DNA of 55,956 nucleotides, counting the filler, from Platydemus manokwari (taxonomy: Eukaryota), in the NCBI GenBank assembly GCA_037951405.1. It is 5 parts of 5 records of this genome, joined end to end, with 100 filler letters (N's around TTAATTAATTAA, not from the genome) between each part and the next. Parts side by side here need not be neighbours in the genome. Positions count along the whole stretch, not along the records: positions 1 to 10,768 come from JBBMOY011106998.1; 4 more parts are not named here. One strand, given 5' to 3'. The notes below the pieces were generated by a model, which was not told the origin of the DNA, ran no database searches, and saw nothing but the letters and a program-made list of their open reading frames with translations. Both the position numbers and the translations under genes were made by a program. The stretch's first letter is position 1; every line of letters starts with the position of its first letter. Shown here piece after piece: positions 1 through 46,491 of this stretch.

Positions 1-37
1 AGTTTTCGATATTATTTTGAATAAATATTTCAACAAT

Positions 38-589
38 TTAGAATATATTTATTGATTTTATATTTTCTTCCAGGATTGGTAAATCAAACCAACTTTGAGA
101 TAGGTAAATACTATTACAACTATTATTTCTTGCTCTTGTATGATAAGCAGGCATCATTGTCTGGTTTTTTTCTGTAACACAATCATCAAAAATTATTAAA
201 TTCTTTTTAATTTTATATAAATCCGATGGGTTTCTACTTTCATTGAATTTAGAAGTCATGATTATTGATATATTACTTTTTCTATAGAGGTGACAACATT
301 GTTGCTATATTTTACAAACATCTCTAATAGTTAAATATTTATTAAATATATCCTGGTCTTAAATTATATTTATTATACTTTCTTTTTATATTCCATTTTT
401 AAGTCCATGATATAAAATTTAATGTTCTTCTTGATAAATAGTTTTTGAAAATATTATTAAATTATCATTAGGAACATTTTAAAAAGTAATTGAGTAACCA
501 GAATCTCCAACAATTAACATTCTAAAATATGAAGGAATATTTATATGATTATTAAATATTATTTTATTTTTCAAACAATTAAAAGCCAT
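38..589 (-). pseudogene. A32/FtsK-like DNA packaging ATPase of Polinton/Maverick type, frameshifted
   Basis: Manual translation from ATG at 589 gives IPSYFRMLIVGDSGYS (decayed Walker A, ~487-540). ORF 38..259 gives NLIIFDDC (Walker B) and TRARNNSCNSIYLSQSWFDLP, matching the A32 motif (T)xGRHxxxSxIxLSQxxF. Stops and frameshifts lie between the blocks. Confidence 0.8.
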
Positions 590-629
590 TTTTAGATTTA
601 AAAGTAAGACAAATAATATTTGATTTATT

Positions 630-1040
630 TGAACGTTGTGAAAACTATTTGCAATCAAATTTATCTTGGAAGTTTCGGATGAAATCTTCCGATAAGTTTT
701 GAAGATATGAAATATCTTTAAAATCCTCTTTATCTTGAAATTCTCTAAAAAAGATGATCATAGTTTTTGACAACATGATATAGCTTCCCAATCCACTTTA
801 TCTTGAAATTTTCTAATAAAATCTTCGGAGAATGATTAATTTTCTGAATTAGCTTTGCAACTTTATCTTTAAATTATCTAATAAAAGATTCTGGTAAATT
901 TTAGATCTAAGTGAAATAAATTCCCAATCAACTTTGTCTTAAATATTTCAGATAAAAGATTCAGAACGATCTTTATGAAATACAATGATTTTCCAATCCA
1001 AATTTTGTCTGGATAATCCACAGCAAGTTTCCTAAATTCG
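630..1040 (-). pseudogene. Tryptophan-repeat protein (23-aa repeats, entomopoxvirus/phage type), decayed
   Basis: TTTATCTT/TTTGTCT recurs about every 69 nt (~660, 729, 797, 862, 933, 1004). The minus strand reads SEDFIRKFQDKVDWEAISCCQKL / REFQDKEDFKDISYLQNL / SEDFIRNFQDKFDCK. Confidence 0.75.
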
Positions 1041-1400
1041 TTAAGATAATAACTAAATGATAAAAGACTAAAAGTTATTAGGCATGAATAGTTTAATCAT
1101 CTCTAAAACTAATATTGAAAGATATTAGAATTTGCCTCGAACAAATCTCCAAGAACATATCGAAAATTTTGATGAAATTATTATTAATTATAATGAAACC
1201 GGAAAATTAGATATATGAAGTACAACCAATGAAATGTCAGTTAGTTTCCATAAGCTCAGCAGAATTCTTCCAAACAAAAGGAGAAATAATTAAGAACTCA
1301 ATACGGGTTTTAAAATCCACTCTGAAAGAAGGAACAATAACAAGAGCATTAGAACTGAAAACCCCCAATAACACTGGTTAGCTTAAACAAAAAAGAAGAA

Positions 1401-2152
1401 ATGAGATTTATCAGAAAAAAGGACGGTAGGATATGGCGAAAGCATCTACCACAAAAATTATCTAGGAATATTAGTACCAAATTACAAAAAGATCAGGCTA
1501 AGAAGGTAAAAGCACCGGGTATTCGAAACAATACCCATATCAGTAATAAAATGGATTATCTTTATCACATAATACAGATTCAGATCACAAATGTCCATTA
1601 TGACATGATTCTCAACGATTGTAGGCTCAACAGAAAAACATTGAGATATCAATTTTCAATATCAGTTAATAATCTGATGTTGGTGGCACCGATGTTGTTA
1701 CTAGAAAAAGGAATTTTTACCAAAATAATGGGGGAAGTCTTATACAGTTATAAATCCATTGAAATAACGGTCCCATTGAGAACACAGCTAGAATGTACCA
1801 ATGAACTACCTGTAGTCTATAATGGAGAAAATAGATATTTATAACCAATATCTCGGATACTAGTAAATAAAAATGTAAAAGTGAAAACGATGCAGTGCGA
1901 CATTTTGTTATCATTATTTTATAAATTTAATAGACCATGATAAAAGATGGCAAGCATGGAACCAACAAACAAGGCAGTCAATCTAAAATAGACAAAGCTG
2001 GAACAAGGTTTGATTTCAAGCCGTTAAGCGATATTACGAAAATAGGAATTTACATCCTAGAAGATGTAGAAGAGGGAAAAAGAAACTTCATGTTTTCATT
2101 AAGGCAAGAAAGAGTGGTTAGACAAATGATAGATTTAAACATGAATTGTTAA
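1401..2152 (+). pseudogene. Chuvirus-G / gB-like class III fusion glycoprotein fragment
   Basis: NKMDYLYHIIQIQITNVHYDMILNDCRLNRKTL...GIFTKIMGEVLYSYKSIEITVPLRTQLECTNELPVVYNGENRYL*PISRILV, then FDFKPLSDITKIGIYILEDVEEGKRNFMFSLRQERVV (ORF 1937..2152). Motif order and spacing match chuviral glycoproteins (GE..Y..KC..V.V..R....C..ELPV....+.FL.P.+RIL; GIY.....R..IMF). Confidence 0.7.
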
Positions 2153-2989
2153 TTTTTATATTTTTCTTGAAATGTTTTTCCCTAGAACTGTCATGAGTAG
2201 TAACCATCAGTGTTTGAGTACATACCTTACAAAATAAATTGTTTCAACCCCATCATGCCCTAGTAGAAACACTAAACCATTAAAAACAGTTTTTCACTTA
2301 AAGCAGCAATGAATGGTCTATGTATGAAATCAATAAAAGAATTAAAAATTGAGAAAAATAATCGCTTATAAAAATTTAGGTTGATTTGTAATATTATAAA
2401 ATCTGTATTATTGTTTTCGTTCTTAAATCACTTTTTACAATTTTTCATACTATTATGAAAAACGGTTGAGAATAGATTTCCACAAGCTCCACGTCGTTTC
2501 AATAATTTAAAGATATGTTTGGTTATTATTTTGTTAGATTCCGATAAAATATGGAGTTAAAATCTGAAACGGAATGTGGTCACATAAATAAATAACAAGA
2601 ATAATATTTTGAGTAATTTTATTATTTGATTTATATATACAAATTACGCAAAGGGAAACATGTCCATCTATCCGTTTACGGAGAAATTAAAATTAAATTC
2701 AAATAAAACACTCATTAACAATTAAAACTCATTATTTTTAATAATATTATACTTTTGATGCTTTAAATTGAAACATATTTTCAAATATTATTCCCAATTT
2801 AATTCTGAGAAAAGATTCGTGATTTCCTACCTTTTATCTATCAGAAGGGTTTATTTTCCATCAATTTCTATTTTATAGAAAATAAAGTTGTTGGAATTTG
2901 AAGCCCAATTATTTTTTCAACTGATAATTATTACGACTGAGCTACAGACCATGAGATTTATAACAATTTTTTTAAATTAAATCAAAAAC

Positions 2990-3790
2990 TTATTAATTAT
3001 AATAGGATTTTTACTAGCTTCTGCAGAAATAACGCCAATACTTTAATGAAACTTATTATTATTTTTATTTAAAACACATTGTAATAAATAATCATTCCGT
3101 CTTTAATTTCCAAAAACTGTAAAATATTTCGTTATCTTATTTCAGAGTGCTAATTAACCTTTCAGCAAAAAAGCTTTACTTTCATTTTCAGTATGATCCA
3201 AACTTACTTGTTATTTTAGTTTCTTTGTCAAATTAAATATATTTTTGAAATTCTCTGGTTTTTATCAAAAATAGTTTTAAATGTTTCCACTAAAGTTTCT
3301 TGTCTTTTATTCTTCGACTAATACAAAGGGTCGCCAAGCTTACTATGAAACACTCGAACATTATCACAAAATTAAGTGATACACATATTTATGATAATCG
3401 CGGTATTTTTAATGATGTTTCATCGCGTTTTTAGATAAAAAATATTTTGGTTAATTTGAGTTTTTTGTAAACCTATCGTAGTTTTGGCCCTCCAAATTTT
3501 AAAAAATCAGCAATGTGGCCCTTTGCTGAAAAAGTTTGGAGACCCCTGAACTAATACACCAACCATATCTTGTTTAGTAAATAAATAATAACCAAAGAAA
3601 GTTTGAAATCATCAGTAGACTCTTTTCGAATAACAAGTGAATCGTACGCAATACTTTATCTGATATCGTAGGTCTCTTAAAATATGGAAACATATCTTTT
3701 CAATTTCATATAAGACTTAATGTTGATTGTGTTGGATTACAATATCCATATAACTTTATTTATCAAATAAGTTCGAAAATTTTACAGTCA
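2990..3790 (-). pseudogene. Polinton/Maverick-type retroviral-like integrase, heavily decayed, interrupted by a hAT MITE
   Basis: Ordered minus-strand blocks: LYGYCNP; TDDFKLSLVIIYLLN/RYGWCIS; [MITE]; KNKRQETLVETFKTIFDKNQR; HTENESKA; AERLISTLK; ITKYFT; FH*SIGVISAEASK. These follow the Polinton integrase pattern (KYAW..PLK.K; KA..ERFNRTLK..KYFT; H.SI...P.E). Confidence 0.7.
3324..3548. mobile_element. hAT (Charlie-like) MITE, copy 1, left end partly deleted
   Basis: Right TIR TTTGGAGACCCCTG. Body nearly identical to 4268-4544. Near-perfect 8-bp TSD GACTAATA (3316-3323) / AACTAATA (3549-3556). Confidence 0.8.
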
Positions 3791-4267
3791 ATAACTTCAC
3801 TTGTAACAAATAAATACAGGTTAGAATTTAATTTAAAATGCGACATAACTCTATACAAAGAACCTTATATATAGGATTTTTATTTAAAAAAATTAATTTA
3901 TTGAAAAATATATATAAAAGAAAACTATTAGCTGAGAAACTATGAATAATGTTTGTTTCCTCTTTACATACATAACGTCCTTCAGTTATAATTTTATAAA
4001 TAATTTCATAAATCCTCATTCGATTCGATAGCAATTTAATATTTTCATAGTAATATTAACTTGTTTATGAAAATTAATTTTGTTTAATTAAATAAATAAA
4101 AAAAATTGAGATTGTTGTATTTAATTTATTTTGCTATTTAATGTGAAACAATTACTTTGGGGTATTTTGGATTTTCCAAGACTTTTATTTAACAATTAAC
4201 ATTTCTATTTTTGAAAAAATTAATATTTTTATGATTGAATTTTGAATTATATTTTGATAATTTAGAT

Positions 4268-4544
4268 CAGGGGTCTCCAAAGTGCTACCCGCCAAGCTTA
4301 CTATGAAACACACGAACATTATGACAAAATTAAGTGATACACATATTTATGATAATCGCGGTGTTAAATTTTAAAACATTTATTATTCGATGTAAGATAT
4401 TAAAACTTTTTGAAAATAACAGGATAATTAAAAAAAAATATTTTGGCTAATTTGAGTTTTTTGTAAACCTATTATAGTTTCGGCTCTCCAAATTTTAAAA
4501 AATCAGCAATGTGGCCCTTTGCTGAAAAAGTTTGGAGACCCCTG
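4268..4544. mobile_element. hAT (Charlie-like) MITE, copy 2
   Basis: Perfect 14-bp TIRs CAGGGGTCTCCAAA / TTTGGAGACCCCTG. The flanks ATTTAGAT / GTATAAAG are not a clean TSD. Confidence 0.85.
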
Positions 4545-4639
4545 GTATAAAGTACTGTGCAGGGTGAAATTTGTGTCTAGGCATATGGAATTTTAATGTC
4601 TATTATAAATGTATGTTTTTCATATTGTATCGGATAATT

Positions 4640-5990
4640 AAGTAGAATCGAATCTTAGTATGTCATCTCAACCGGAGCCGAATCAACGTCAGTGTCAGTG
4701 CTGAGAAATTGGAGATATGCGCCTGTGATGTTTAGGATGAATACATGTCTTTTGCTGCTTTTCCTGAAATGGTTAGGCAGTGAACGAATACATGGGCTCA
4801 GTGCTACATCCGAGGCAAGGAGGGATTCGTTGAGCTTAATAAAATATGAGAAGTATTTGACTGCAAGTAAATTGTTACGAGCCTAGTTAATGAAAATCCA
4901 GATTTCAGGAGCTACGTGACAACTATTAAAAAGTTTTTGTAAACTGGTGGAAAAGAAAAAGTTGACCGTGTTTTTTTAAGTAATTTCCGTTGATTAAAGA
5001 AAGACATTTAGACTAAGTCATGTAGAATATCGGAGAGTTTATTCCTATTCTCGATTGAAAAGAAGTATGTTAGATCATTATTTAGAATCATTTTAATGCA
5101 GGTTTCAGAATTGTGTTGGAAGAATTGTATATCCATTTTATGTTTGCAGAATTTTCTTATTGAGAATCAGGTTTTAATCTACCAAGTAGAGGATAGGTGT
5201 TGAAAGAGTGAGATGTTATCACTAATTCAGGAGAGTGCGGTTTGTACGTCAAATGTGTAGGCGGAGTAAAGGTGTTTCCCAACAATGTATAACATGTATG
5301 ACATTATGAATTCATGGAACGTAAGTTTAAGAGTGCTCAAGAATTGAAATGAGGAAATATCGCATTGAATACAGTATTCAGATAAAGCTGGGGTGAGTCC
5401 AAGATCACCGACTTTGCAGAAAAAAAAGAACGGGATATTCGAGGATTCTTTTCTCAAACCCCTGAGTTTAGGAGTCTCTATCGTGATAAATCAAAGTTGA
5501 GTGGTTTCTATTTGTTGGATCTGGAAGTGGAATGTAATTCAAGAATGAAAAAGAGTATTATATGCTGGAATTTCGAGGGTGGATGGACACGAAATTTGGC
5601 AATTATCTCAAGGTCAACCAAGATATTTTGAAGAATGTGGGTCATAGAGGTACGTTTAGGAAGGCCAAAAGGTATTCTGAGATTTGTATAAAGGTTTTCA
5701 CTATCGACTATGGGAATAAACTCTTTTTCGAGGTTGAGATCGATTCTATTAAGGGGATTGTTGTTGAAATATCCACATTTTTGGGTATTGAATTTAAGAA
5801 AGATTTTGGAAGCTATGTGACAAATATGATTTAATCTAAGTTCGAAGTTTTTACCGTAGTTTTCAACTCTAACTATGTCATCAGCGTATGCGAATTTAGA
5901 TTGGAGTAGAGAGGGTTTTCGAGGATGGTAGATTATTTCAGTAAAAAATCTAAAGAAAGGCAAAAGAGGATCATGGAGAGAGGGTTCATA
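4640..5990 (-). mobile_element. R2/NeSL-type (RLE) non-LTR retrotransposon fragment, RT C-terminal half
   Basis: AYADDIV, KFNTQKC, IPIVDSENLY..L.IPFG and downstream WIFIN*ARNNLL. Same family as 33130-33520. Confidence 0.8.
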
Positions 5991-7152
5991 CTTACTGCAG
6001 CATAAACAATTTATTTATTTATTTCAGTTTCCGGAAAAAGCTGGCTACTGTTATTCTGAAATTTAAAATACTATAGTTTGCACTAAATAATTCACCATAA
6101 AAATTATCTAATCGAAACCATTCAAAAGTCAACATTGAGATTTTTCAGCGGGAATATAAATATGTAAATGAATCAGCATATTTTTTGAAAGTAACCAGTG
6201 AGCCATATTGATTCTATTGAAAGTGCTGATTAACAAAGTCTGATAAATCAAACTAATTCAATCTAGAAACACTTTAACAATTCTATCGGTTCTTCATCAA
6301 CAATAAAACCTGTAGTTATTGATCGAAACTCATTAACAATTCTGATTATCGCAGAAATTTGCTTTGTCACCAAAGAATTACCGAATCCAAAATCCTCATC
6401 GATTTATTTTTACTTAATCAATTAAAACAATGTGTTTTTCATAAAATTTATTCACTACAAACATTTTATTTTGTGTAATAAAAGATGAAGAAAATAATAG
6501 AGATTTCAATATAATGAACATTAATAATAATAATAAACAGAAATAATAATAATTAAATAGACAATAAAAAGAAAAGTAACAATCGATAATATGTCAAATT
6601 CGACTGAGAATTAGCTGTTTAATCTGGTTAACACCCACGCTACATCAGCAAAATACTGATAAATATTAAAACGAAAATTTAGAAGAAAAACCCATAAAAA
6701 CTGAAAAATACATGGTTATAGATTCAGTACAAGAATTGATTGAATAAATGGAATATGGATATCATTGAGAGAAATCTATTGGGAACAAATTCACTTTCTC
6801 AATTCATACATTAGACTGAGAGGGAAGAAAAACTTTTATCAGAATCAGAATTTTCACACAGTGATAATTGATTTTATTGATTAAAAACTTAGAATAATTC
6901 ATTCAAATTAATAGCAGGTTAATTCCATTGAATAATCCAGCTACAGATTTGTCCTCCGACTCTACAGAGATTCAGCAGATTGACGAACTTGAACAATTTT
7001 GAGCCATTATTTTGTTGTCTCTGTGTTACCATTATTTCACTTTTTGCAAATAAATTTATTCATTTTATCCACCTGAAGTTTTGATCTGGTTTATCTACGT
7101 TAAATTGAAATTTCTCTCATGTTTAGATAATTATGAATATCGTTGTTGGAGT

Positions 7153-7764
7153 TGTGAGCCACCACTATTTAAAAGAACGCATCGAAAACGAACTGTAAAA
7201 GACTCGACATTCAATTCTATTCAAAGACAATTATTTACACAAAATAAATAAAATTTAATATCAAATAAAATTTAATATCAGATTAAATTCAAAATAATTT
7301 CATATTCAATTAGATATTCTCACAACCCCATTTTTAAAATCTTTGATTTTCATTGTATTCTCGATTGACTTTGTATCTAATACTCGTAATATTCATCTAC
7401 GTAAAGCTCTCTTATTATTCTATCTTTTATGGCTTCTCGATATCTTCTCTATATCTAATCTACATCTTTTTATATTATTTACATATTCTCTTTATAGTAT
7501 CACACCTTTCTACTTCTTTTCCTGAATTTACTATCATCAATCTTCTCAGAATCGAATCTAGATGGGTGGTCGCCATGTAAGCCGCCACTATTTAAAAGAA
7601 CGCATTGAAAACGAACTGTAAAAGACTCGACATTCAATTCTATTCAAAGACAATTATTTACACTAAATAAATAAAATTTAATATCAAATAAAATTTAATA
7701 TCAGATTAAATTCAATATAAATTCAAATTCGATATAAATTCAAATTCAATTTGATATTCTCACA
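7153..7764 (-). mobile_element. TRIM (terminal-repeat retrotransposon in miniature), copy 1
   Basis: Direct repeats 7153-7324 and 7576-7764 with TG..CA ends. On the minus strand, PBS TGGCGACCAC follows the 5' LTR and PPT AAAAATGGGGT precedes the 3' LTR. ~250-bp non-coding interior. No clear TSD. Confidence 0.85.
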
Positions 7765-7789
7765 ATGATGAAATCAATATGATGATACA

Positions 7790-9415
7790 ATTAATTGTTT
7801 TTCTCGTGAAAAACCTAGCAATTCTGTATGGGATTATAATAATGGGTATTGCAAAACTGACATTGATAAATTAGAGTTAGGGCCTATTCATCTGAATGAA
7901 GTTCTCTCTATTTTAAAATCAGTAGGTAATACCTCACTTGGAAGTGACAAAATTAAATATCGTGGTTTTTCACTTTTAGACTCTGAAAGTATTTTAATTC
8001 ATCTTTTTAATAAAGTCATTTCAAATTGTAAATTTCCAAACGATTGGTATAGATGGCGATTATAAAAATATCTATAACTGGAGACCAATAGCTTTCTTAT
8101 CAACTTTATATAATATTTTTGCGTCAATTATGACTAGAAGGTTAGCGTATTGGATCAGAGATAATAACTTGCTCAACAGGGGTCAAAAGGCGGCTTTAAA
8201 TATGAAGGTTGTATTAAACACAAGGATATTCTAAATGCTTTTGAACATTCGAAATATGCTCGACATTTTTCCATTTTTTGCATGGCTTGATATTGAAAAC
8301 GCTTTTCACAGTGTCCCACATAAACATCTATCGGACCTGCTTTGTTTTATAGGCGTAAATAGGTCTTTTGTGAATATCTTTGAATTGTTCTATACTGATA
8401 TAAGCTCAGTTTATATCTGTGAACCTATTACTACACCGGACTTGCCTATTCAAAGAGGAGTCAAGCAGGGCTGTCAATTTATCAATTTATCAATCTTTCC
8501 AAAACTATGCCTCTAAAAATACATGGTGGTTACGCGTTATCAAAGCAATGAAATATTTACAAAATACTCATAAAATCTTCTTGATTTTTGAACTTCTTAA
8601 ATATGGAACATGCTTGAGGATGACATCTAAATTTTGTAGCACTTACAACTTTGGTTCTCGTAATCGTAAACGTCTATCTCTTGTTTTGCACCAAGTGATT
8701 CAGGAATCTTAATCGTTAAGATGGTTTGATAGTAAACGCAGTTACTTTATTGCAGATACAATTAGACTATCTCTACATATTAATAAGATGATTTTTCGTA
8801 GTGACCCGAAATCCTTTGCATTTAAATTTATTCACTAAGCTAGAACGAATACACTACCCATTAATGACTCACTGTGGAACACAAATTAAAAAAGTCAAAA
8901 ATGCAGACGTTGACACAATTTAAAAAAAACCTTGTCACATGCTATACAATGTTGTAACCTGAAAAAATTACAGGCTGCCAGCCTTGATCCATGTCTAAAC
9001 AAAATTGTTGAGTGTCTCTACTTAGAGGAAATCATTGTAGTAGTCAACCAAATGTGTTCCCTGTTTAACCAGATGACAAAGAGCGTAACGATTCGATGAT
9101 ATCCCATGTCGAGAGGAAAAATATTTTGTGGTAGATATGAAATGCCCAATTGATACGTTGAAAAACTACAAGGAAGAGAACAAAAATAATATAACTCACT
9201 ATATCGATTTTAGAAATGAGCTAGTCAAATAGAAATCAGACTTTAAAATTGACCAATTAACCTGCATTATAGGCTCTCTTGATACAGTTTTGGCCACAAT
9301 TGAAGCAATTCTAGCAAAAACTAAAGTGGCAAAAACAAAAATCGAAAACCTGGTCAAAGAATGCTCAATAAGAAATATTGAACACTCAGCAAAATCTGGC
9401 ATTTCCAATTGACCG
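7790..9415 (+). mobile_element. R2/NeSL-type (RLE) non-LTR retrotransposon, decayed RT + CCHC knuckle + restriction-like endonuclease
   Basis: GPIHLNEVLSILKSVGNTSLGSDKI; NWRPIA; WLDIENAFHSVPH; RGVKQG; KCRR..TLSHAIQCC (~8900-8960); VVDMKCP; IIGSL...CSIRNIEHSAKIW (~9260-9400). Confidence 0.8.
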
Positions 9416-10088
9416 ATGTTCTGATAGATTTCATCAAGTTGTTGAGTGAAACGAAATTCTGCATAAACTAAAACGAAAATTACACCTTAGGACCCTTGTT
9501 TTCACACTTTGAACATTTGCATACCTACACAGCCATACAAGTATAGCAATTAGCCAATCACATTAAAGCTAAATGGTGAATTACAATTGGAAAAGACGCA
9601 TAGCTACACAAAGCACATATATAGGATTGACCAATCCCGCTCATGTAAAAACTTTAAAACCCAATAAGAACACAGAAAACAAATATCATATCAAATTGTT
9701 AGAAAACTTGACACAAAAATACGCACAGATCGCGAATCTTAAAATCGATGTAAAAATGAACAACTACCAGTTGAAAGCCAAGTTTAGGTTAAGACTTTGT
9801 GGTTCGTGTATTGATAAATACATCTTTGAATTGGAGTCAGTTGTTTATTATTAATAAATATCCAACATAATCTATAAAATATTCAAGCTGTTCCAATCCG
9901 AAAAGAACCGAGATGTCTGAAAGAAGAAAGCAACATTGTAACAAGTAGTTTCTAGACCCAAGCAGATCAAAATTTCTCCTAAAAATATGTACCAAACTTG
10001 TATTTTAATAAATTTTATGACAACAATTTAACTATTAAATTATATTAATTCATTTAACATTAATATGGTTCCTCAATTATATCAACCG

Positions 10089-10768
10089 TTACTGAAATTG
10101 AGAGTCCAATTGTAATAGTGATATCTCCAATGAGTTTTGTTGGTTTATACTTAAATTTTCTGGTTCACACTTTGTCCATAAACAATAAACGATCTCTGTT
10201 ACCATTGATTTACCACATATTCTTTCTATCATGTTCAACAAGAATATTCCATCATTGTTCATAAATTGTTTCTCGAAATTTGCAAACTTCATTTTGTTCT
10301 TGTCTTCAGTGAGATTTATTAATTGTAGATGTTTGTTTATTTTCGTTTGTTGTTTGTATGAGATATTGTTCCATATGCATCCCAATAAACTGATCACGTT
10401 CACACAAATTAGACCAACAAAAAATATCCACAGAATCCCGAAAATGTACTTGTAAATCATATTCCATGACAACAGACAAATGGCATTGTATGAGTGATTT
10501 TGTCCAAGAACATTCGTCCAGTGACACACTGTACGAGATGGAAAAATATCCGATGTTTCATTGAACACATCCATGATTGTTGTGAAATTCAATCGAAAAC
10601 TCACTGACATGATGAATAATTGTAGTCCTATCGCTGCGATATAAATGATTTTTACAAGAAAATAATTTCCCAGAATTCTCGATCCCATTCGTTTAGACAA
10701 GAAAAAGATTCTAAATGTTTTATGAAGAATTGCTCGATATCGTGAATAAATACCGAAATTGATATCTC
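10089..10768 (-). CDS. Innexin, C-terminal half (TM3, second extracellular loop, TM4, tail); 5' part lost in the gap
   Basis: The frame stays open up to the gap (DINFGIYSRYRAILHKTFRIFFLSKRMG...). Innexin motifs: YFLVKIIY..LQL, FPSRTVC, ICLLSWNMIYKYIFGILWIFF, F...FMNNDGIFLL..I...CG......VYCLW. Confidence 0.85.
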
Positions 10769-10868
10769 NNNNNNNNNNNNNNNNNNNNNNNNNNNNNNNN
10801 NNNNNNNNNNNNTTAATTAATTAANNNNNNNNNNNNNNNNNNNNNNNNNNNNNNNNNNNNNNNNNNNN
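10769..10868. other. Assembly linker N44-TTAATTAATTAA-N44
   Basis: Identical 100-bp spacer with stops in all six frames, seen four times. Confidence 0.97.
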
Positions 10869-13142
10869 CAATAATAAGTTTTGTTTTTAAATTGTAAAAA
10901 TATTTTTTAAATTTATAAATTAATTTTAAAATCTTATCAAATATCAGATTTATGTTTTAATAAATCACCAAAGATAAAGTTAAAACTCATTTTATCTAAA
11001 TTTGAATATATCTAATTATTTCTTATTCGAATGAATTTTTTGCTAATTCTGATTTTCGTCCACTGGCCGACAACTCACTTCAACATTCTGGCAATTCTAA
11101 CAAAATTAAGCCCCGAGTTTAATTGATATTTTGCCGAAGTCTTAATTCGTAACGAAAGATTCAACATTTGCTGAAGGTCTTGATCGTCAAGGAAATTTTT
11201 ATATTTGCAAGCGTGAGTAATATTTGACTATGTTCTAACGAAAGCACTGCTGTTAAAATCGTAATATAATTAATTTAACCATAATTAATCATTAATAGTT
11301 GCCTCCAGATATGCCTCGTGCGGATATTTCGCAGCAAATTACTTGAGTATTGCGTTGCATAGTTTAGCCAAATTTTTGTGTTGTTCTTTTGCTGTTTACA
11401 TTGTTTCGTTCTTTTCAAATAAATAATAATAACCATTGTGTCGTTACTCTATTAATTAATAGTTATCATTATTAATCTGGTAATTTTTAACTCATTATAG
11501 TGTATGTTCAGTACAACTGGCAGTTGCTAAAACGGGACAGTCCGAATCCTTGTAACAGTCAATTGAATAATCTCAACTTTTACATATCTTCAATGTATTT
11601 CCCAGTAGCTTCTTTTTCATACGAGCTACTGAAGCCCTCTAGGACCAGTGTGAGCAGTAAAATCAAAAAACCACCCCACTTAATTAACATTATCTTAGAG
11701 AATTACTGATTGAAGAAGCTCTCATGGATTTCGTATTATTATCGTCGAGAGATATTGTGGGAGTTAGCCTTTCAATTTTTAATTAATTCGTTGTAGTTAG
11801 AGTATTCTGCAAGAATGAATGCAACATTTATGTGATGATCGTCACCTTTAGGAAATTGATTTTTATTTACTTTTCGGATTTTCACTGATCACTTTACATT
11901 TGGTCCGAATCTCTTTTCTACTCAAGCTCAAATATGGTTAGAGAAAATTCCAATTGTTTCAACAAGTTTTTTGATTTTTTTTTCCGAATTATGTGACCAA
12001 TGTCTCAGCTGATCAATTTTTCAGATGAGTGTGTCCACTGAATTATATTTCTAATCGGATTTCGTTATTTCTACTTGAAACTTGCTCTTTTTTGTGTTTT
12101 ACATTTTCTTTTTTCTGATATTCTATTTCCCAAATTCAAATTGGGTCTATCGATTTTCTATGATCGAGATTAGCCAATCCCTGAGTGTGCTGTTATGTAG
12201 TCATGACATTTTACCACATTAGTGTCTTGGCGTCATTTCTGATTAGCAAGTATCTACTATGCGTGTATGCTCATGTAAATCGTCAAAACAAGAATGACAC
12301 TGGTCTTTACTCCACACATCCATCTTTACAATCATGTTTTTATTCTAATGTATTATTTCTTTATTTTTTAATAATTGCTATTCTATTTTTACTAATGTTG
12401 CTGTTACACTAAGTCTAATGTTCTAAAATGCTTTAGTAAAAAAAATCGTTAATAATGTTATTAAATTTTCTTAAATCAATTTATGTAAATATCGACACAT
12501 CAACACATCCACTCTGTATGATATATCTAATACACAATTATTCACGACTCTCTGCGACTGGTGAGAGGAACATCAAACTCTTTTATCAACAATTAATAAT
12601 AGTCCCATAATTCCAGATTTCAAAACACTCAGTTGAATATATGATGTTTAAAAGTAATCAAACGCCTATAGTGGATATTGATTAATCGATTAAACAATAT
12701 ATAGGCACCATGTTGTATAATTTAACTATTGTTTATTATATTGCTACTTTCACATTATTTTCCTGGCATCAATTAATCGAGCCCTTGATTATGAAAGTGG
12801 TATAAGTCATTTCAACCTTTCAAAACCAAATTCCCATTTAAAATGGTAATAAATTTCACAATCATATTAAATGCTGATTTACCGGCGCTAATTAATTGTC
12901 AAAATGTTTCATTCCATAATACACAAATATTTTTTAATTCTTTAACATGCAAATCCCTTAATATCTCCAAAAAACAAGAAATATATGACTTATACCACTT
13001 TCATAATTAAGAGCACAATCAATACAAATTCGATAACACAAACTCATGCTCAAATAAATATCGATATTTAGCAGATAAAATGAAAGCCAATTAAAAAAAT
13101 TAACATATATTCTCATCAACACATTCTATCATGCATAAATAT

Positions 13143-16100
13143 CTACATTTCGACTTGCAAAGCTTTAATTTGATCGATAAATGTGTTCAAATCCTCTTCT
13201 AATTTAAATTTGATTGAAAAAGTCTCCTTGGTGAGCTCAGTTCCTTCACTGAAATCGTTTCCAATCCAACAGGCACTTGTTTTAGTCTGTGGTTGAAAGG
13301 CGGGAACCATTTTCATGATAGCCTGATTGCAACAGACTTTGTGGACCTGCTCTCTCTTCATCACCAATCGTGATGATTTCTCGCCACGTTCATTGATTGT
13401 CACCAATATTTTCATATCACCAATTCCTCTTTCTCGCCATTGACCTTCATGGAATTTAAACAATTTACAGCGCTTCCTGTACAAACATTCGGAATTTTCC
13501 TCGCCTGTAATCACCTAGAAAATCGTCAATTAATAATATCGAATGACATCAAAACACATTTCAAATCAACCTCAATCTTATCGGGTAGATCGATAATCGG
13601 TTTGTAGTGGGGATCGTAATCATCTGTTTCTTCCTCTTCATCTTCCTTGTCGGAATCCTTCTTGGTAAACAATTTCGAACTTGAAGTATTCCAAGTGCTT
13701 TGAGTATTTCCGGCGAATCCCGAGTCAGATGTAAAATTACCGAAGCTCAATGAATTGTTGGTATTCGATGTCAAACCAAATGTGAAATTCTTCTTATCAG
13801 ATGTTTGGGCGCTATCGGAACTATTGGCAACGTTACCAAATAATGTTGATTTCGATCCGAAAATGTTTTTCGTATCCTTAACATCTTGGTTGTCATGGAA
13901 ATTGTTCGTTTTGTTGCTCATATTGCTGTTTTGATCATTACATGAATCATTATCATCATCACCATCATCTTTATCGGATAAATTCTCATAATAATAGAAA
14001 TGATCTGGCAACAGTAATGCTCTTGCACGAATCTTCTGCTCTTCTGTCACATAGGGTTCACTAACCAGAATCACATCACTATCACTGTCATTGTTGTGTT
14101 CTTTTGCCGATTTCGATGGAAAACCATTTTTCACTTCACCACAAGCAATACATTCAGTGACATTAGCTTTATTGGCTGTCGTACAATTACAGATCCATTT
14201 ATCAGTACCATTATTTTCCAATTTACCAACATTATTGACACCATGTGTGACAGAACTGGCGGTATTTGTAGAATTTGGTAATCCGAAAACGAAAGATGAT
14301 GCTGTTTTATTAGCATCAGTCGATGGTTTCGATCCAAAATTAATAGGAGCATTTGATCCTTTGGTCGGTTCGGGATTTGTTGAGCTCAATTTAGGTACGC
14401 CAAATGAAAATGTTTCACCTGTTGTACTTCCGGTAGAAGATTTTCCAAAAACTACTGGCGTATAAATATTTTTAACAGTAAGATCTCCTAAAACATTCGA
14501 AGATTTGTCTTTACTTGATTCCGTCGACGAAGTATTTTTATTTCCGAATACAAATGACGAATCTTTATTAACTGTAAATGGTAATTGGAGTTTACTTTCA
14601 GTTTTCTTGGATGATTTGTCATAGCAACATGCTGGACATACGGATACATTATCATCATTCATACAACAACATCCGGGACATTCCCATTTGTTTTTATTGA
14701 ATTTTGATAAATCGAATGAGGGTTGACTTTTCTGATCACCTTTTACAATGTGAGGTTTGGGATTAGCTGATGGTTTGGCGTGAGAACATGCTGGACAAGA
14801 GGATAATTTATCATCATTCATACAACAACATCCGGGACATTCCCATTTGTTTTTATTGAATTTTGATAAATCGAATGAGTGTTGACTTTTCTGATCACCT
14901 TTCACAATGTGAGGTTTGGGATCAGTTGATGGTTTGGCGTGAGAACATGCTGGACATGTGGGCAAATTATTATCATTCATACAATAACATCCTGAGCATA
15001 ACCATTTGTTTTGATTGTATTCCATCAAATCAATCGTTTGATTATCAGTTGAATTCGATAAAACGGTGGTCTGATATTCGTTTGGAACGATTTTTCGTTC
15101 ATTTTTCAACAGAGGCAACAAGACCTTCACCAGGTCAAATTGCTGCAACTGTTTCGATGCATTGATAAATGAGCTTTGCACACTATTGTTGATGAGTGCT
15201 TTCAGATTATTTGTTTCCGGATGAATGAGTTCTTCAACAAATTTCGATGCCATCTGCATTTCATTCATCTCATTTTTCAACACACCATTTTCAATGGTTA
15301 ATTTATTGATTTTATCCGTTAAATTATCCACTACTTTCTCCAACAATTGCTTATCATCTCGATCAATTTTGACTTGAAATTCGAGTTTTTCCGTTTTCAT
15401 TGATAGTTGATCTATTTTATCAATGAGATTTGTGTAAATATCATTTTGTCGCTGCTTTTCGTAATCAGTTTCTTTTCGAATAATATCGAATTGATTCTTG
15501 ACATCTTTTGACAAATTATCCATATGTGACATACAATGATCGACATCACACCCGATTTTATCCTGGAAAAATATTTATATCTCATTTTGTGGAGTGGAAA
15601 ATATTCAAATAAAAATATCGCTCTGTCAAGGGGAAGACAGTTCAAAATGTCATTGATCAATACAGTTATAGCATTACAACAATATATCAAATATTTCGCT
15701 AATAAAATTGGGGAAATATTTTAAAAATTCAACGATAAAACATGTAAATATTGAAAATTATTAATAATAATTATTTTACAAAATAAATTATTGAAAATCA
15801 AGTGCGCTTAAACAAAAATAATATCAAATAATCAGATGAGAATAATCGATAATCATAATATAAATCGGCACAAAATTCAAGAAATGTAGCTCTACCTGAT
15901 ACTTGCCAATATTAACCATGTCCGACTGTAATTGTTCGAGTTTGAGATGATCAAGAAAATGTGACTGATCATTGGATACCGATGAATGATTGTATAAATC
16001 ATTGGATAAAACTGATTGGTTGAAAAATTTATTACTGTTACTCGTTTCTCCACCACAAGTGAAATCAAATATCGAATCTAGATAATGCAATATATTGATT

Positions 16101-18758
16101 AATCAACACACACAAACTCGATTTTATTATCTACAACTTACAATCATATGATTGGCTGGCCGAACTCAATTCGTTGAGATGGTGCTGCAGGATATCGTGC
16201 ATTTTGGAGCGTTCGGGATCGGTTAGAGCTGTCAAACAATCCAAACCATCATGAGCACTGTCCGTTGCCAATTTAATTAATCTATTGAATTCATCGAGTG
16301 GGATATTTTGTCCTTTTTTAGATTGTGCTCGCTGGAAATAAATTTGTGATTTCAATAAATGAACTCTTGGTAATGAAGAATTCAATTTTTCGGCATTTCC
16401 AATCAATCGTTCCAGTTCATCGAAATCGACTGAACCAATCATTTCAGGTTTCATGTATTGATTTATAATCAAGAAATATCCTTCTAATTTCCATTGGTCC
16501 AATATCTCGTCTGGAACATGTTCTGTATCAAATAGTTCCTTGATTTTAAATCCACTAAACGATCCCCCGGTTAGGTTGGTGTAACTTTTCTGGCGAGAAA
16601 TTGAATTTTGGTTTGAATACGACGTTATGGCAAGATTTTTAAACATATTTTGTGATTTAGCGGGTTGTAAAACATGCGAGTAAAAATCAATGGATCTCGT
16701 TCTGAGTGCATCTCTTTCAGAATCCATGAAAATTGAGCAATTAAATGATAATTTTGCCAGTTGCAGTTTGAGATCATCACCCATTTGATTATCAACAAGT
16801 TGCAATGAATCGAGTCCACTCTTTAACAAGTCTCTCAACGCACCAATCGATGTCATTCGCTTGTTTTGTAAGGTGAAATCACAAACACCTTGCCAGAACT
16901 TGAGTAAAACTTCAGGAATTCGAATTTCTTCCCACAAATCGAAAGGATAAATTATTGATTTGCCACTGAATTTGATTTTATTCATCGATTTCTGATATGT
17001 GAGAAAGGTTCCAATCAAGAATACAATGATATCGATTTTGGATATATTTTCCGGGCATCGTTTATTGGTGGCGATAATCGGCAATTTTGGAAACAATCTC
17101 CTCACCAAATCACCAACAAAAAGACAAAGCTCTTCCTCGAATTCATATTCAAATGTTTGTTGGAAATTATTAAAGCAAGCCATTTGCCAGATGATCAATT
17201 TCAGATTATTGAATTCCTGTGATAAATATGTGATATTTCTCATTATGATATCAGACAGTTTGATTGGAGGCACTCGAACAACGAATTTGTCTTTGAAATC
17301 ATTCAACGAATCTGGCAGATTATCGTTAGAAGTCCACACCAATCGAGCGAGTTCGTGGAGAATCTTTTCGTTATCGAAACGATTATTTCCCATACCAACA
17401 TGTTCAAAGATGAAATGTCCAACGATAGAACGAATGAAATTGTTTTGATTATTTATCCACTTCATCAATGGAGCACCGAATTCTTTCAAGCCGTTGACTT
17501 CAATGGAATTGCTCACCAAATATCCACCGTATATCGCTTCGATTGATTGTTCTGACAGCTTTTTCCCTTCCACCGCACGACAATGAGCAAGCCCACTGAA
17601 ATAAAACATAAACAATCCAAAGATCTCCTTGAAAATCCCATCGAATTTCTCGTTTTTCAATAAATTTAATAAATCCAACAAATATGTTCCGCGATCGTAA
17701 TCACAGATCTTTGAATGATTGCGCAACATTGAAATGAGAACGAATGCGTAATAGGGTTTGGTTGAGGTTTCGTTTTTATAATGTTTCTGTAACAGATATT
17801 CACAATATTTTTAATGACAATTGTTAATTGTTACCTTAAAAATCGACAGACAGATTTTGACGGCATCGATATTTTCAAGAATGGGATACGTATTCATCAA
17901 CTTAATGGATTCTTCTACTGAATCGACAACACCGTTCTGGTTATCGAGAATTCTCAAGAAACGAATCTTTAAATCATCTTTCACATTGGTTTTCTGAACA
18001 TTATTTTGATTATAATTTAACGAAATAAATCCAGAATGGATTTAGCTTACAATTTGATCTTTCAATTTTATGATTTCTTCAATGGAATAATTAAAAGTAA
18101 CATTAGGAGACAATAAATTCTTAAATGCCAAATCAAATAAGGTTGTAAGAAAAAAACACGGAAACATACTTTTAGTTTTAAATAACTATTATTATTAGGA
18201 AAAGAAACTTCTAAAATATTTAACAATTTCTAAAAAATGTTAATAAAACATATGAAAACAAAACAATGTACTTTGACTTTGTTTTCACTGATGTTCTCAC
18301 ATTTACATAGACATTCACAAGCTAAAAGATTAATAATAAATGATTACGACAAACAAAACTATACCTTTATTCAAATCATTTTCATCTAAAAATAAATCAT
18401 ATAATCTCTCATAATCATTAGCTGCTAAATCAAATTCATTTAGATTTTCGTGGATTTTTGCTTTCAACTTTAACGCGTGTTGATTATTTTCCTTTATCTT
18501 GATAAATCTTTTTATGTAACTACAAATGAAATTAAACAAATTATCTGAACAATCAACCATATACAGTTTAGAAGTTTCATATTCTTTCACATCGAAATAA
18601 AATTTCGCAATCATTTGACATTGAAGATCATTCTACAAATTGATACTTGACAGAAATATTAATTATCAAAAACAATTTACATCATGCTGATTTCTTGATA
18701 TACTTAATAACTTTTTCACATGCTGATCTACTTCATCTTTGGTAGAAAACATATTCAT
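13143..18758 (-). CDS. RANBP2: RanBP2/Nup358 nucleoporin, about 11 exons, roughly 1,600 aa
   Basis: N-terminus (MN)MFSTKDEVDQHVKKLL; TPR region IAKFYFDVKEYE..LYI; FPNNNSYLKLK. Exons by GT-AG reading: 18758/18752-18681, 18632-18565, 18519-18365, 18321-18272, ~18229-18170, ~18120-18052, ~17993-17835, ~17786-16142, 16077-~15896, ~15562-13571, 13514-13143. Four RanBP2 zinc fingers, FG/FxFG repeats, SIM+IR motif DSDVILVSEP..EEQK..A..LLLPDHFYYY, and a C-terminal Ran-binding domain (DPHYKPII.LP..EV.TGEE...WRERGIGDMK..MKREQVHKVCCN). Confidence 0.93.
14600..15012 (-). repeat. Coding tandem repeat of RanBP2 zinc-finger units, 159 nt / 53 aa period
   Basis: GACATTCCCATTTGTTTTTATTGAATTTTGATAAATCGAATGAG at ~14677 and ~14836. 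The protein repeats KPHIVKGDQKSQ.SFDLSKFNKNKWECPGCCCMNDD. Confidence 0.9.
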
Positions 18759-21700
18759 TTTGAATGATAAACTAATTAAAATATATATAAACAAAATTAA
18801 AATTCAATCAAATTGTTTTTCTATTTTCTTTCAAAGACTTTACATAATCAATAAAAATATATTCTGCTTTTTGAATTTATAGTTATAGTTAATGTGTTAT
18901 CATTGACCTATATTTATAACAGGAAATCATGACTGTTTAATATATTAACTTAATATTATTATGTTAATGTTTTTAAGTTTAATAATATTATGTTAAAAAT
19001 GAAATTAATACTCAATTATGTTCAACAATTTTAGTATTCAATAGCCAGTAACAAACGTTGCAATGATTAAATTAAACAATTTATAATGATAATTCTGTAA
19101 TAATTAAAAGTTTTTTGAAAGTTTATTGAGACTTTGTCAACCCAGAAAAAAGCAAACCAAAAAGCATGGATTCAATAGTCTTAATAACTCGTGTAAAAGA
19201 AAAATACAAAAATACAATACAAATAAACACAAAATTAATAGCCTACCATAAAAAATAAAATAGATCTCGAAAATAGTATAATCGATTAACTTTGAAGAAA
19301 ATTTAACAGGTAAAGAGGCGTGTTGGCACATGACTTAACTTTCAAGTCAGGCATAAAAACTGACTACTCAATTCTTTTGTAATAAAACCTTATAAAAAAT
19401 ATTAGTTATTTAACAGTTACCCTTGAGTTTTAATTTATCTTCAGAGTTTTAATTTATAATATAATTTGGTACGATCTAAACAAGTGTCAAATCACAAGTG
19501 GCTTGCCACGCTTTATTTTAACATTTTTCTCCACCATTCAATATTATTGGCTCACCTAATAGCTCTGTTTTTTCTGTCGGTATATCTCAGTTTCAAGTTG
19601 AAGTCCCATTAGAGAGCGTTAATTCAAAATTTTCTGGTTAACTATTCGAGTAGTGTTTATTGCTTGTCAATGTATAAGTATTTTTTAAAATCTAACTGAA
19701 AGATTCTGGTCCTAATTTTAATTAGTCTTAGAAACACTCAACAATTATATTTTCTGCAGAAAAATTTTTATTGACGAAATTTCATTAAAATTCTAAAATT
19801 GTTTTTAACTTAAAGGATTTATTAAAAAAATTATTTTACAAGAAACAATTAAAAGGCATTTTGCAACAATAATCTTTGAACAAAATGATTCAAAGGAAAT
19901 TATATTAGAAGGATATCCCTCTGCCAAGAAAATCATTTTTATCCACATATTTTTCGGTTATAAAGCATTAATAACGACGAGATATTTTTTTAATTAATGA
20001 AAACCATTGATTGTTTCCACTATTTTGTGGTTATACTAGACCTTCTTCACCTTAGAATCTTTTTGTTGAAATTTCTGTATAAAACAACAGACTTCCATGG
20101 CGTGTTTAGTAGTGTAAAATCAATAGTTTTACTATTATTTTTATTTGTCAATTTTTGTTTATCATTTTTATTTATTATTTGATATTTATATCTAAATTTC
20201 AAACATTATAATATCATTTATAAAAGCACGATATTTGTAAATCAGATAAGTTGTAATTATTATTATGAAATCAATTATTGAACCTCCACATTGGAAATAT
20301 ACACCAGGATGGTAAAAAAAGATTATAAGTGAAATTATAGTTGGATAGATAGTTAGTTAATATCGCGGAATGGAAAAATAGACTTTAAAGATACTCATTG
20401 AAAAGTTGAGTAAACTTTTTAAAGGTTAACACTGTTGGGTGCCGGGCATCATCCTTCACATAAATAAAAATAAACGCAAAGTATTTTAAAGTAAAACCTA
20501 AAAATAGAACCAAAAATAAATATAGTAATAATAAAATACTAAATTGAAAAGGCTAAGTAAAAGCAGCTGGAAATATCCGAAAATGATAAATCATAAAAAA
20601 TAAATAAATAATATACAAAACTAGAAACACAATAGAATAAAAAGATAACAAGTATTAATACATCCACAAGTGGCAGTTATGCACCACACAATTAAAACAT
20701 TACGTCATCACGAAAACCTTCACAACTTTATTTAGAAAAAAGTCATTACTGTCTAAGGAAAATTAACGTATATACATGAAGATAATTTTATTCACAAATA
20801 CCAAATACATAGTCACCTACTTTGATCGACATTGATATAAGCAATTATATTTTGTTAAAATGACTTTTCTAATTAACATTATCCAAACGATTTTATGTCT
20901 TTACCTTAAATTTAAATAGATTGTTCCTGTCAAATCATTTTATTAATTACATTTAAACTAGTAAAGTAAGTTTATCTCAATAAGAGGGATTTCTCCCACA
21001 TATGGGTTCAATCCTCAACACGTTGTACAACAACAAGGAGTCTTGCTGCGAAAATACAAGACTCAAATTTGCTTCAATAGAAATAATAGCACCATATATT
21101 AATTATTTAATTAAGAAATATGGTTATTGTTTAATTCATTAAAATGATTGTTAACTATTTAAATCGTGATGTTTATTTATGATCATTATATTTTTAAATA
21201 CATATTATTAAAAGGTGTTCATTACTCTTTATTGGAGTCAGATATCACTTTTTATTTATATATTTGTTGGCATTCCATTATTCATAATATTTTATTAAAA
21301 CCCATATAAAGCAAACAATACGCATGTACAATAATCACATACGCCTACAAATTATTAATAACTGATTGAATTTTGAATGTCCATTGCAAGTAACAAATAC
21401 CAAAATATACCCATGATTTGAGTAATGAGCGGTTCTAAGAAATGAAAAGCAGAACCGCAAAACAACAATTCAGCGTTCACCAAGTCTAAAAAGGTGTCAA
21501 CTTTTGAAGACAACTATCAACCTTTTATTCTGTAAATTTAATCATTATTTTTAGCTTTTGGGGCTGAATCCATTGTGATTTTGACATTTGTATACTCCGA
21601 CTTTGATTTCTTAGAGTAATTTTCATTTTGGGATTTTTGAGTGTTTTGTATTGACAATTTTATTGAAATTATGTGAATTTTCATTTTGTTAATTATAACC

Positions 21701-22274: not shown

Positions 22275-22374
22275 NNNNNNNNNNNNNNNNNNNNNNNNNN
22301 NNNNNNNNNNNNNNNNNNTTAATTAATTAANNNNNNNNNNNNNNNNNNNNNNNNNNNNNNNNNNNNNNNNNNNN
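22275..22374. other. Assembly linker
   Basis: N44-TTAATTAATTAA-N44. Confidence 0.97.
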
Positions 22375-22489
22375 TAAATTACGCCTGTGGCCTTAATCAA
22401 GAACTCTTAGAGACTGATTAAGACAGTAGTGATATTCAATAGGATTAAGCTTATTAAAACAAATAAATCAATAAGGCCCGAACGTAACA
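22375..22489 (+). mobile_element. 3' end of an LTR (same family as 28802-29266) abutting DEG/ENaC coding sequence
   Basis: Highly similar to 29151-29266, ending ...AATAAGGCCCGAACGTAACA. Confidence 0.8.
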
Positions 22490-23469
22490 ATGATATGAGT
22501 CTATTATTCACGAGTTCGTGGCATCAAATACCATATAATATTCCTTGTTATACATTTAACATTAATAAATATAAAGTATTTAATATATCTAATGTACAAA
22601 GATTTGAGTTTTATATTAGAATAAATAATGATAGCAATAAAATATTTAATGCGATCAATGGTATTAGACCGGTCCATTTGTATCTCAATTATGAAAATGA
22701 AATTTCTGACAGACTCATCACTCTTACGCCTGGATACAGAACAGAATTAAGAATTACTGAAAGTCGATATCGTTATAGTGGTATTCAAAGAAAATGCAGA
22801 AATGACGAGTTTATTGTTCAACTCTATGATGCTCTTTTTCAATCGACAGATTCATTTGAAGGAAATCACAACTTATGTTCATCAATAGAAAGTCAAAGAT
22901 TGTACGTTCGTAAGTGTGGTTGTTACAATCCATTTTTACCAATCTATAAGAATGAAAGTGGATTTCCAATCATTTGTTTGAATGCATCAATATTCACAAA
23001 ATTTGAGCTGTTTTCTAACTTGGAATGCATGGTACAAATTTCTGATGAACTTTCGGCATTTATTCACGATATCTGTAACAAATACAAGATTGAGAAATGC
23101 AATAATGTGAAATACAAAACTGATATACGAAAAGATATGTTTTCAGAAATTTGGTCGAATCCAATCATGAATGATCAAAATAAATATTTTCAAGAAATCT
23201 GCAATACATATTTTGAAAGAATGAAAGGCAGTCGATCTTTTCTTCAAGAATTAAGAAATCATTGGATTATGCTTGTTATCGATAGAGATTCTGAAAATGG
23301 TGATCTTTATCAAGAGGAAGAAGATTATGGATTATCTGAATTATTATCTGGTATTGGAGGATTGATGGGTTTGTGGATGGGCGTAAGTGTTGTTGGATTG
23401 TTTGAAGTTGTTCAATATTGTTATTATATTATTAAATCGTGTGTGCCCAACAAAATTTCTCAAAAATGA
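22490..23469 (+). CDS. DEG/ENaC (ASIC/FaNaC-like) channel, extracellular domain + TM2, interrupted at its 5' side by an LTR
   Basis: PCYTFN, PG.RT.L.I, Cys-rich thumb (C...ESQ......CGCYNPFLP), YGLSELLSGIGGLMGLWMGVSVVGLFEVV (TM2 with GxS belt). No introns in this part. Confidence 0.88.
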
Positions 23470-33700: not shown

Positions 33701-33945
33701 GCATTTACAACATATAAAGCACACACTAATCAACGGAAACTTAAGCCACTATCACGGACGAGGACCTTCAACCAACTGAGCACAACAACTACGGATTGAT
33801 AGATATCTATCGAATGAAACGTGAGAAAACTGAGCAAAGAATCTCGAAGAATGAATCATTGAAAAAATGCAACTGTATATAATTTATATTGATGTGAGGA
33901 CATGTGCCACCGCATCGCTAAAAAAATAATGTTTATGTGAAATAA
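30715..33945 (+). mobile_element. NeSL/R2-type non-LTR retrotransposon with Ulp1-like protease and RT, internally deleted
   Basis: C/A-rich block. LTSQ*LSSGAIEAYL and NSHWNFYIADRNKQNTFFIDS (C48-like). RT motifs STPGNDG, WIDFKEVFPSLPH, VKQGCSLS, LAYADDIV, KYLGVPF, SRLHPSQKF. Confidence 0.85.
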
Positions 33946-37388: not shown

Positions 37389-37488
37389 NNNNNNNNNNNN
37401 NNNNNNNNNNNNNNNNNNNNNNNNNNNNNNNNTTAATTAATTAANNNNNNNNNNNNNNNNNNNNNNNNNNNNNNNNNNNNNNNNNNNN
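37389..37488. other. Assembly linker
   Basis: N44-TTAATTAATTAA-N44. Confidence 0.97.
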
Positions 37489-46391: not shown

Positions 46392-46491
46392 NNNNNNNNN
46401 NNNNNNNNNNNNNNNNNNNNNNNNNNNNNNNNNNNTTAATTAATTAANNNNNNNNNNNNNNNNNNNNNNNNNNNNNNNNNNNNNNNNNNNN
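46392..46491. other. Assembly linker
   Basis: N44-TTAATTAATTAA-N44. Confidence 0.97.

Follow-up and report, generated by a model that had tools for sequence, protein, structure and literature searches.

Decayed genes at the locus

The stretch of DNA analysed here (the window, 55,956 nucleotides of the Platydemus manokwari genome, GenBank assembly GCA_037951405.1) carries near its left end the remains of a Polinton/Maverick DNA element, and among them a fragment of a class III envelope glycoprotein gene (env). The window is AT-rich (GC content 0.21-0.41 per kb) and consists of contigs joined through N44-12-N44 linkers at 10769-10868, 22275-22374, 37389-37488 and 46392-46491; parts lying across a linker are not genomic neighbours. 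All of the remnants lie on the first contig (1-10768) with no linker inside that span, and the left end of this contig may extend beyond the window, whose edge cuts the Maverick. The features are as follows.

77..589, minus strand: A32/FtsK-type packaging ATPase of a Polinton/Maverick, decayed (protein search and homologue mapping)
612..1010, minus strand: gene of 23-residue tryptophan (Trp) repeats, decayed, phrog_3532-like (repeat period and PHROG matches)
1205..2146, plus strand: internal fragment of a class III (PF24664, gB-like) env of the GAG-ENV-POL Ty3/gypsy type, with several frameshifts (Pfam, profile and tree)
2147..2752, no strand: unassigned AT-rich spacer in which neither the env C-terminus nor a protease or Polinton gene was identified
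2753..3631, minus strand: Polinton-type (rve) integrase, moderately supported, heavily decayed and interrupted by a miniature inverted-repeat transposable element, MITE (profile and chained alignment)
3324..3548, no strand: MITE in the integrase (short terminal inverted repeat; 7-of-8 target duplication)
3846..4052, minus strand: weak candidate for the C-terminal end of a decayed Polinton minor capsid gene (tblastn and three-sequence profile)
4268-4544, no strand: second, fuller MITE copy (its part 4290-4544 is 79% identical to 3324-3548)

An earlier interpretation made from the DNA letters without database searches (the sequence-only reading) had placed four decayed frames here, for an ATPase, a Trp-repeat protein, a glycoprotein and an integrase, and all four were recovered in that order and on those strands (best E 1e-53 for the ATPase, 2e-10 for phrog_3532, 8.5e-17 for PF24664 and i-E 7e-5 for the integrase). 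The ATPase frame at 38-604 on the minus strand, read with X at stops, matched 43 of 234 candidates, the best at 57% identity, and 37 of the 43 carry the precomputed label PF04665 (Pox_A32). Residues 1-180 of the 255 in the homologue P0082 align to 589..77; the gene has five stops in 171 codons and a damaged Walker A region, and its last ~75 codons were not found between 77 and the window edge. A prokaryote genome scan with the ATPase returned one 30-residue match only, at chance level, and IMG/VR scans with the ATPase alignment and with P0082 confirmed no locus. The Trp-repeat gene, for which we assume the family name “tryptophan repeat,” occupies at least two frames, starts perhaps near 1100 and stops just ahead of the ATPase start. 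It has a 69-nt period at 623-820, matches phrog_3532 in two of three frames (the second at E 7e-7) and matches four phage records, phage G gp559 among them.

The integrase was sought with a hidden Markov model (HMM) built from three Polinton integrases of related contigs (rve E 6e-13 and 5e-11 in the two that were scanned), whose sole positive-scoring match in the whole window lies at 3147-2989 on the minus strand. The C-terminal half of the profile reached its top score of 160 tiles at the locus (56 vs. 42 at the next unrelated site), and a chained alignment along 3631-2753 on the minus strand scored 97, as compared to 63 ± 7.5 (maximum 78) for 40 shuffles and 68 ± 10 (maximum 94) for 48 other natural tiles. 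In this chain, profile positions 72 and 73 fall at 3550 and 3317, so that the MITE is skipped unprompted. Pfam gave no integrase match at 2753-3631, a word-indexed protein search with one integrase frame matched none of 795 candidates, and IMG/VR gave no confirmed locus for the integrase alignment. Profile and chain together lend moderate support to a real integrase at 2753-3631, as the sequence-only reading had proposed for this block, with the amendment that 3324-3548 is a MITE. The same profile and chain, set against a capsid comparison, ruled out the identification of this gene as a major capsid gene. The MITE, presumably hAT-like judging from the length of its target-site duplication (TSD), inserted into the integrase as a later event.

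An A32-type ATPase is accompanied by a moderately supported rve integrase, and the matches of the first together with the profile and chain of the second uphold the identification of a fossil Polinton/Maverick. The ATPase, the Trp-repeat gene and the integrase probably formed one element, since they share a strand and since the order of integrase then ATPase is that of three related contigs. These contigs (L001, L002, and L006) belong to 44 loci recovered by a metagenome scan with the ATPase alignment, each 1-14 kb long and none a whole element. In all three the integrase lies upstream of the ATPase on the same strand, as in the window, at a distance of 1.3-2.7 kb (2.1 kb in the window) and with no env between. 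The close loci are Polinton-like, with a double jelly-roll (DJR) major capsid, a pX-like gene and a PLA2-integrase fusion; Trp repeats occur in none of the 611 open reading frames (ORFs) of the 44 loci, and eight env queries found env in none of the 44. The fusion is an observation in its own right: at L001:151-1557 and L006:55-1470 an N-terminal zinc finger is followed, within a single ORF, by a parvovirus-type PLA2 (PF08398) joined to the rve integrase, and alignment indicates the same arrangement at L002:242-1609.

Beyond these genes the element is poorly preserved. The minor capsid candidate at 3846-4052 is weak (tblastn E 0.013-0.057 within 4.6 kb; rank 2 of 215 tiles with the three-sequence profile), and a five-sequence minor capsid HMM gave no match there. 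Remnants of the major capsid, pPolB, protease, PLA2 and pX-like genes were not detected in the window, the pPolB negative resting on one pPolB-like ORF among the 611 tblastn queries. Neither long terminal inverted repeats nor the 6-bp TSD of the Maverick were found; of the 25 longest inverted repeats listed, none has an arm in 1-4300. Within the spacer, a weak signal resembling an integrase N-terminus at 2492-2650 on the plus strand scores above shuffles, ties with an unrelated site and does not exceed the window background; its DNA bears no similarity to 3552-3860.

Contigs of a sequencing run, X1, which may be the source sample, were compared with the window, with 15 of 295 joints and 6 of 2126 loose ends listed, and related sequence was found over all parts of the locus. 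Contigs at single-copy depth (8-10) cover 514-1214 with one difference and 2098-2944 with none. The latter bridges the right env junction; the left junction is marginal, the former passing 1205 by 10 letters. One further contig joins 3310 to 3552, with only 22 letters on one side. Summed contig depth, which is not copy number, cuts both ways and was not used for deciding, amounts to 576-788 over env, 63-74 over 2143-2856, 398 over 2857-3213 and 13,000-21,000 over the ATPase. At 300-450, an AT-rich part of the ATPase, it rises to 65,000 vs. 8-12 for the single-copy contigs, which may reflect a very abundant derivative or chance AT-rich matches. A search of sequencing runs matched one run and no RNA run, and has no bearing on expression.

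Extent and kinship of the glycoprotein fragment

The glycoprotein, identified by its match to PF24664 (Monjiviricetes_fusion), amounts to roughly half of a gene. Built from 14 env proteins of the long terminal repeat (LTR) retrotransposon type, a 645-position profile matches it at positions 207-523 only, in three frame pieces over 1205-2143; towards either terminus the profile stays at null level on the env flanks when compared with shuffled flanks. The piece has no signal peptide, N-terminal half or membrane anchor; as predicted from the structural model and from class III anatomy, the lost N-terminal half would hold both fusion loops. In the homologue P0001 an anchor-like hydrophobic stretch lies at residues 692-720, and the match to the window ends at residue 659. 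A continuation of env into 2147-2450 with such a stretch was considered and rejected, there being no signal above shuffled flanks. Env lies on the strand opposite to the Polinton genes, tail to tail with the integrase, and its 5′ end is within about 100-200 nt of the Trp-repeat gene. It has one stop in 189 codons vs. the five in 171 of the ATPase. A word-indexed protein search with the piece (0 of 89 candidates), a PDB sequence search, an IMG/VR scan with the window's env ORF and a prokaryote genome scan yielded no match or confirmed locus.

Relatives came from a phmmer search with 1533-1841 against 1.84 billion representatives, which gave 76 matches, 17 of them at E ≤ 1e-10. Domain scans of 66 of the 76 found PF24664 in 63, the other three being chance matches, and retroviral protease (PR), reverse transcriptase (RT), RNase H (RH), integrase (IN) or gag domains in 10, with PF24664 always N-terminal of the protease. 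Eight of these 10 proteins are among the top 17, the top five included. Also in the top 17, P0012 belongs to the same 90% cluster as an env-PR-RT-RH-IN polyprotein of 4099 aa, Bcl-2 is weakly matched ahead of env in P0006 (E 0.00096, below the curated cut-off) and P0008 shows, by eye only, a gag-like N-terminus; the remaining six are fragments of 100-492 aa. Another relative, P0077, is a 4844-aa protein with ankyrin repeats. Context was read in all cases from domains within the same protein rather than from surrounding DNA. The best match to an LTR-type protein reaches 87 bits vs. 49 for the best stand-alone glycoprotein (G), and stand-alone G proteins of 650-690 aa enter the list from E 6e-8. 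As separate observations, a Bcl-2-like helical region precedes env in P0001, P0006, and P0052 (by the weak Pfam match in P0006, by eye in the others), and several close homologues carry repeated aspartyl-protease-like domains.

A tree of 53 rows was built from the window frame 1365-1931 and 52 of 82 candidates, the 30 others being dropped where the region was not spanned. The window row falls in a 100/100 set of 20 rows that takes in every one of the 13 rows with an LTR label (given by Pfam in 12 cases and by eye for P0008), and so groups with gB-type env embedded in polyproteins; its exact sister is not resolved. A 100/100 branch of length 1.25 parts it from the stand-alone G proteins and from the G of L045, a real chuvirus with an L-G-N layout. 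The name “chuvirus-like glycoprotein” given by the sequence-only reading is accordingly right as to the PF24664 family, but the tree makes the fragment retrotransposon-env-like and places chuvirus G further off. When IMG/VR was scanned with the env alignment, one of 115 candidates was confirmed, a chuvirus. Two members of the env set without a retroviral domain in the called protein, P0032 (426 aa, on a 24.9-kb contig) and P0009 (447 aa, 5.9 kb), are the best leads for a Maverick-borne copy.

The proposed class III, gB-like fold holds for a homologue rather than for the window piece itself. The predicted structure of P0006 (mean predicted local distance difference test score, pLDDT, 81.6) retrieved herpesvirus gB in all 40 PDB matches listed (best E 7e-14, template modelling score, TM, about 0.3), and its BFVD search was led by chuvirus-type G. 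These matches, made through P0006, sustain the assignment, with which the Atlas features agree.

Origin of the env fragment

The locus is probably a dead Maverick/Polinton holding a nested or patched-in env fragment, likely derived, to judge from sequence kinship, from a separate GAG-ENV-POL Ty3/gypsy (Burro-like) retrotransposon. Since the closest relatives are retrotransposon env, a leftover of a second element is likelier than a new enveloped Maverick. The Maverick, which perhaps also included the minor capsid remnant, would have received the gypsy env fragment later, either from a retrotransposon that inserted into it and then lost its LTRs, gag and pol to deletion, or through break repair that patched in a piece of a retroelement. 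In the donor, as expected from the family, env would be cut from a polyprotein and form class III fusogen trimers on retrovirus-like particles. Nothing at the locus is predicted to function, and neither a particle nor a fusogen product is expected. Such an origin would be ordinary, two elements of known types having decayed one within the other in an animal genome rich in repeats; it carries the caution that “chuvirus-like” PF24664 matches in such genomes are often retrotransposon env.

Several observations weigh against this origin. At E ≤ 0.01 the 56-kb window gave no match to any of 18 gag/pol polyprotein parts, no LTR remnant flanks the piece, and shared 7-mers at the env ends, as a target duplication would leave, are below chance (1 vs. 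4.4). The nesting event itself, marked by neither a gag/pol match nor a 7-mer excess, is thus hypothetical. Six rows of the 20-row env set lack a retroviral Pfam label, their DNA context being unread, and protein searches are blind to a Maverick neighbour of a stand-alone env. The 44 ATPase-related loci are short and none has the Trp-repeat gene, so they represent a different family from the window Maverick and the lack of env in them is a weak negative. Summed X1 depth is of the same order for env and for the part of the integrase with 398. The lower AT content of the glycoprotein block, seen already by the sequence-only reading, is real (GC 0.32 vs. 0.235 in the Polinton parts, p 2e-6). Between the genes of intact relatives, however, GC ranges from 0.21 to 0.31, so that the step is not diagnostic, and GC contrast alone was ruled out as proof of foreign origin. 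Even so, the caveat of the sequence-only reading, that the piece may be the env of a nested LTR element, is the better interpretation.

The sequence-only reading had proposed a fusogen belonging to the Maverick. In that event, a Maverick lineage would have made a class III env of the gypsy type a gene of its own, much as MFUS-1 became one in nematode Mavericks, and the copy in the window would later have lost both gene ends by deletion. The place of env among the Polinton genes, where it lies tail to tail with the integrase and shows no trace of gag, pol or LTRs alongside, the single-copy-depth contig that spans the env-spacer junction at 2098-2944 and the similar order of the env and integrase depths would all suit such a gene, as would the nematode precedent as far as the accessible parts of those reports describe it. 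Yet two deletions would be needed, removing exactly the signal peptide, the N-terminal half, the promoter space and the anchor; the env 5′ end lies no more than about 100-200 nt from the Trp-repeat gene; every close homologue with a readable context is an LTR polyprotein; and env is in none of the 44 related loci. Other glycoprotein copies beside gag-pol, which the sequence-only reading had named as the observation that would count against it, do exist in proteins of other genomes, the copies in the P. manokwari genome being unread. Given those unread copies and the missing gag, pol and LTR traces, ownership by the Maverick keeps some weight, yet no test supports it, and it is disfavoured and must be called unlikely. 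It would imply, with the same low probability, that the element made enveloped or cell-to-cell spreading particles, and it would represent, doubtful as this is, a second, independent origin of an enveloped Maverick outside nematodes, with env between the Trp-repeat/ATPase genes and the integrase and an identifiable gypsy donor family. If true, env transfer from retrotransposon to Maverick would illustrate how an envelope is acquired in a lineage with non-enveloped capsids.

Very improbable is an order produced by assembly chimerism or by a chance pile of unrelated repeat fragments. The window is strung from short contigs in a repeat-rich region, the integrase has moderate support and the left env boundary at 1205 is passed by only 10 letters of an X1 contig; on the other hand, 1-10768 contains no linker, single-copy-depth contigs reproduce 514-1214 and 2098-2944 with one and no differences, and the ATPase, Trp-repeat gene and integrase share a strand in the order of L001, L002, and L006. 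Lower still stands a fragment of endogenised chuvirus (Jingchuvirales) G that landed in the Maverick. The PF24664 match, the lead of chuvirus G in the BFVD search of the homologue and the stand-alone G proteins of 650-690 aa from E 6e-8 onward are what such a fragment would give, but the fully supported branch of length 1.25 that parts the piece from L045 G and stand-alone G, with 87 bits for LTR-type proteins vs. 49 for stand-alone G, largely refutes it.

Elsewhere in the window, long uninterrupted frames mark host genes for an innexin (10092-10766, minus strand), a RanBP2/Nup358-like protein (13146-17810, minus strand) and an amiloride-sensitive channel (22411-23466, plus strand), of which a partial copy at 74% identity lies at 37191-37388; these genes indicate an animal. 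Decayed RT frames resembling those of non-LTR retrotransposons are found at 5511-6014 (minus strand), 7772-8234 (plus strand) and 31422-33799 (plus strand), based on PF00078 at E 1e-16 for 32361-33305, on a weak match for the first and on inspection by eye for the second. The inverted-repeat pairs 27769-27914/30607-30759 and 48582-48641/49366-49425 enclose stretches of 3 kb and 0.8 kb that are probably DNA transposons, and an AT-rich repeat is common to 7153-7766 and 45172-45689.

Comparison with known systems

Animal Mavericks/Polintons with an A32 ATPase, an rve integrase and a DJR capsid (here L001, L002, L006, L014, and L018) share the ATPase family of the window, and the integrases match; they differ by the Trp-repeat gene, which precedes the ATPase in the window and in none of the related loci. 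As described in the accessible parts of two reports, the MFUS-1 gene of nematode Mavericks is intact, encodes 866 aa including a signal peptide and an anchor, and is conserved in many Polinton copies; the Mavericks that bear it are proposed vectors of horizontal gene transfer (10.1101/2022.07.12.499685, 10.1101/2023.08.22.554363). The locus resembles them in having a class III gB-like gene among Maverick genes. Unlike them, it has no complete fusogen ORF standing on its own with signal peptide and anchor but one truncated copy, which covers positions 207-523 of 645, and the relatives of this copy are LTR env domains; the comparison is one of gene design, not of sequence. In a literature search that covered few subscription papers, a PF24664-type env was not found reported for any Maverick outside nematodes, and fusogen-bearing Mavericks were described from nematodes only. 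Transposons have been treated as polinton cargo in the available part of another study (10.1101/2025.02.07.637071). Chuvirus G belongs to the same Pfam family and has a predicted class III fold, but it sits on a separate branch of the tree, and no N or L gene lies beside the env piece.

The closest counterparts of the env itself are found among retrotransposons of flatworms, nematodes and bryozoans. According to the sections available, the giant Burro gypsy elements of planarians number thousands of copies, and Dugesia japonica carries fragments of them in decay; the 4,873-aa ORF1 of Burro has ankyrin repeats, and its env, which matches mononegavirus fusion glycoproteins, follows a BCL2-like motif and precedes the protease, all in frame (PMC6431247). 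Likewise, in what could be consulted of their article, Chary and Hayashi describe GAG-ENV-POL errantiviruses with an HSV (herpes simplex virus)/gB-type env in Nematoda, Bryozoa, and Platyhelminthes, with up to 215 intact copies (PMC13524379). A Burro-like element differs from the locus, which has an internal env half only; as no gag, protease-RT-integrase or LTRs flank it, the locus holds an env fragment and not a Ty3/gypsy element. The link to Burro runs through homologues with a Burro-like domain order rather than through a named Burro sequence. Within the accessible descriptions, these elements resemble the closest env homologues, in which env stands in frame between gag, in some with a Bcl-2-like region, and the protease, and they resemble the homologue P0006 in its gB-like fold and its kinship to mononegavirus-type fusion glycoproteins; P0077, with its 4844 aa and ankyrin repeats, and P0006, with its weak Bcl-2 match, both fit the Burro design.

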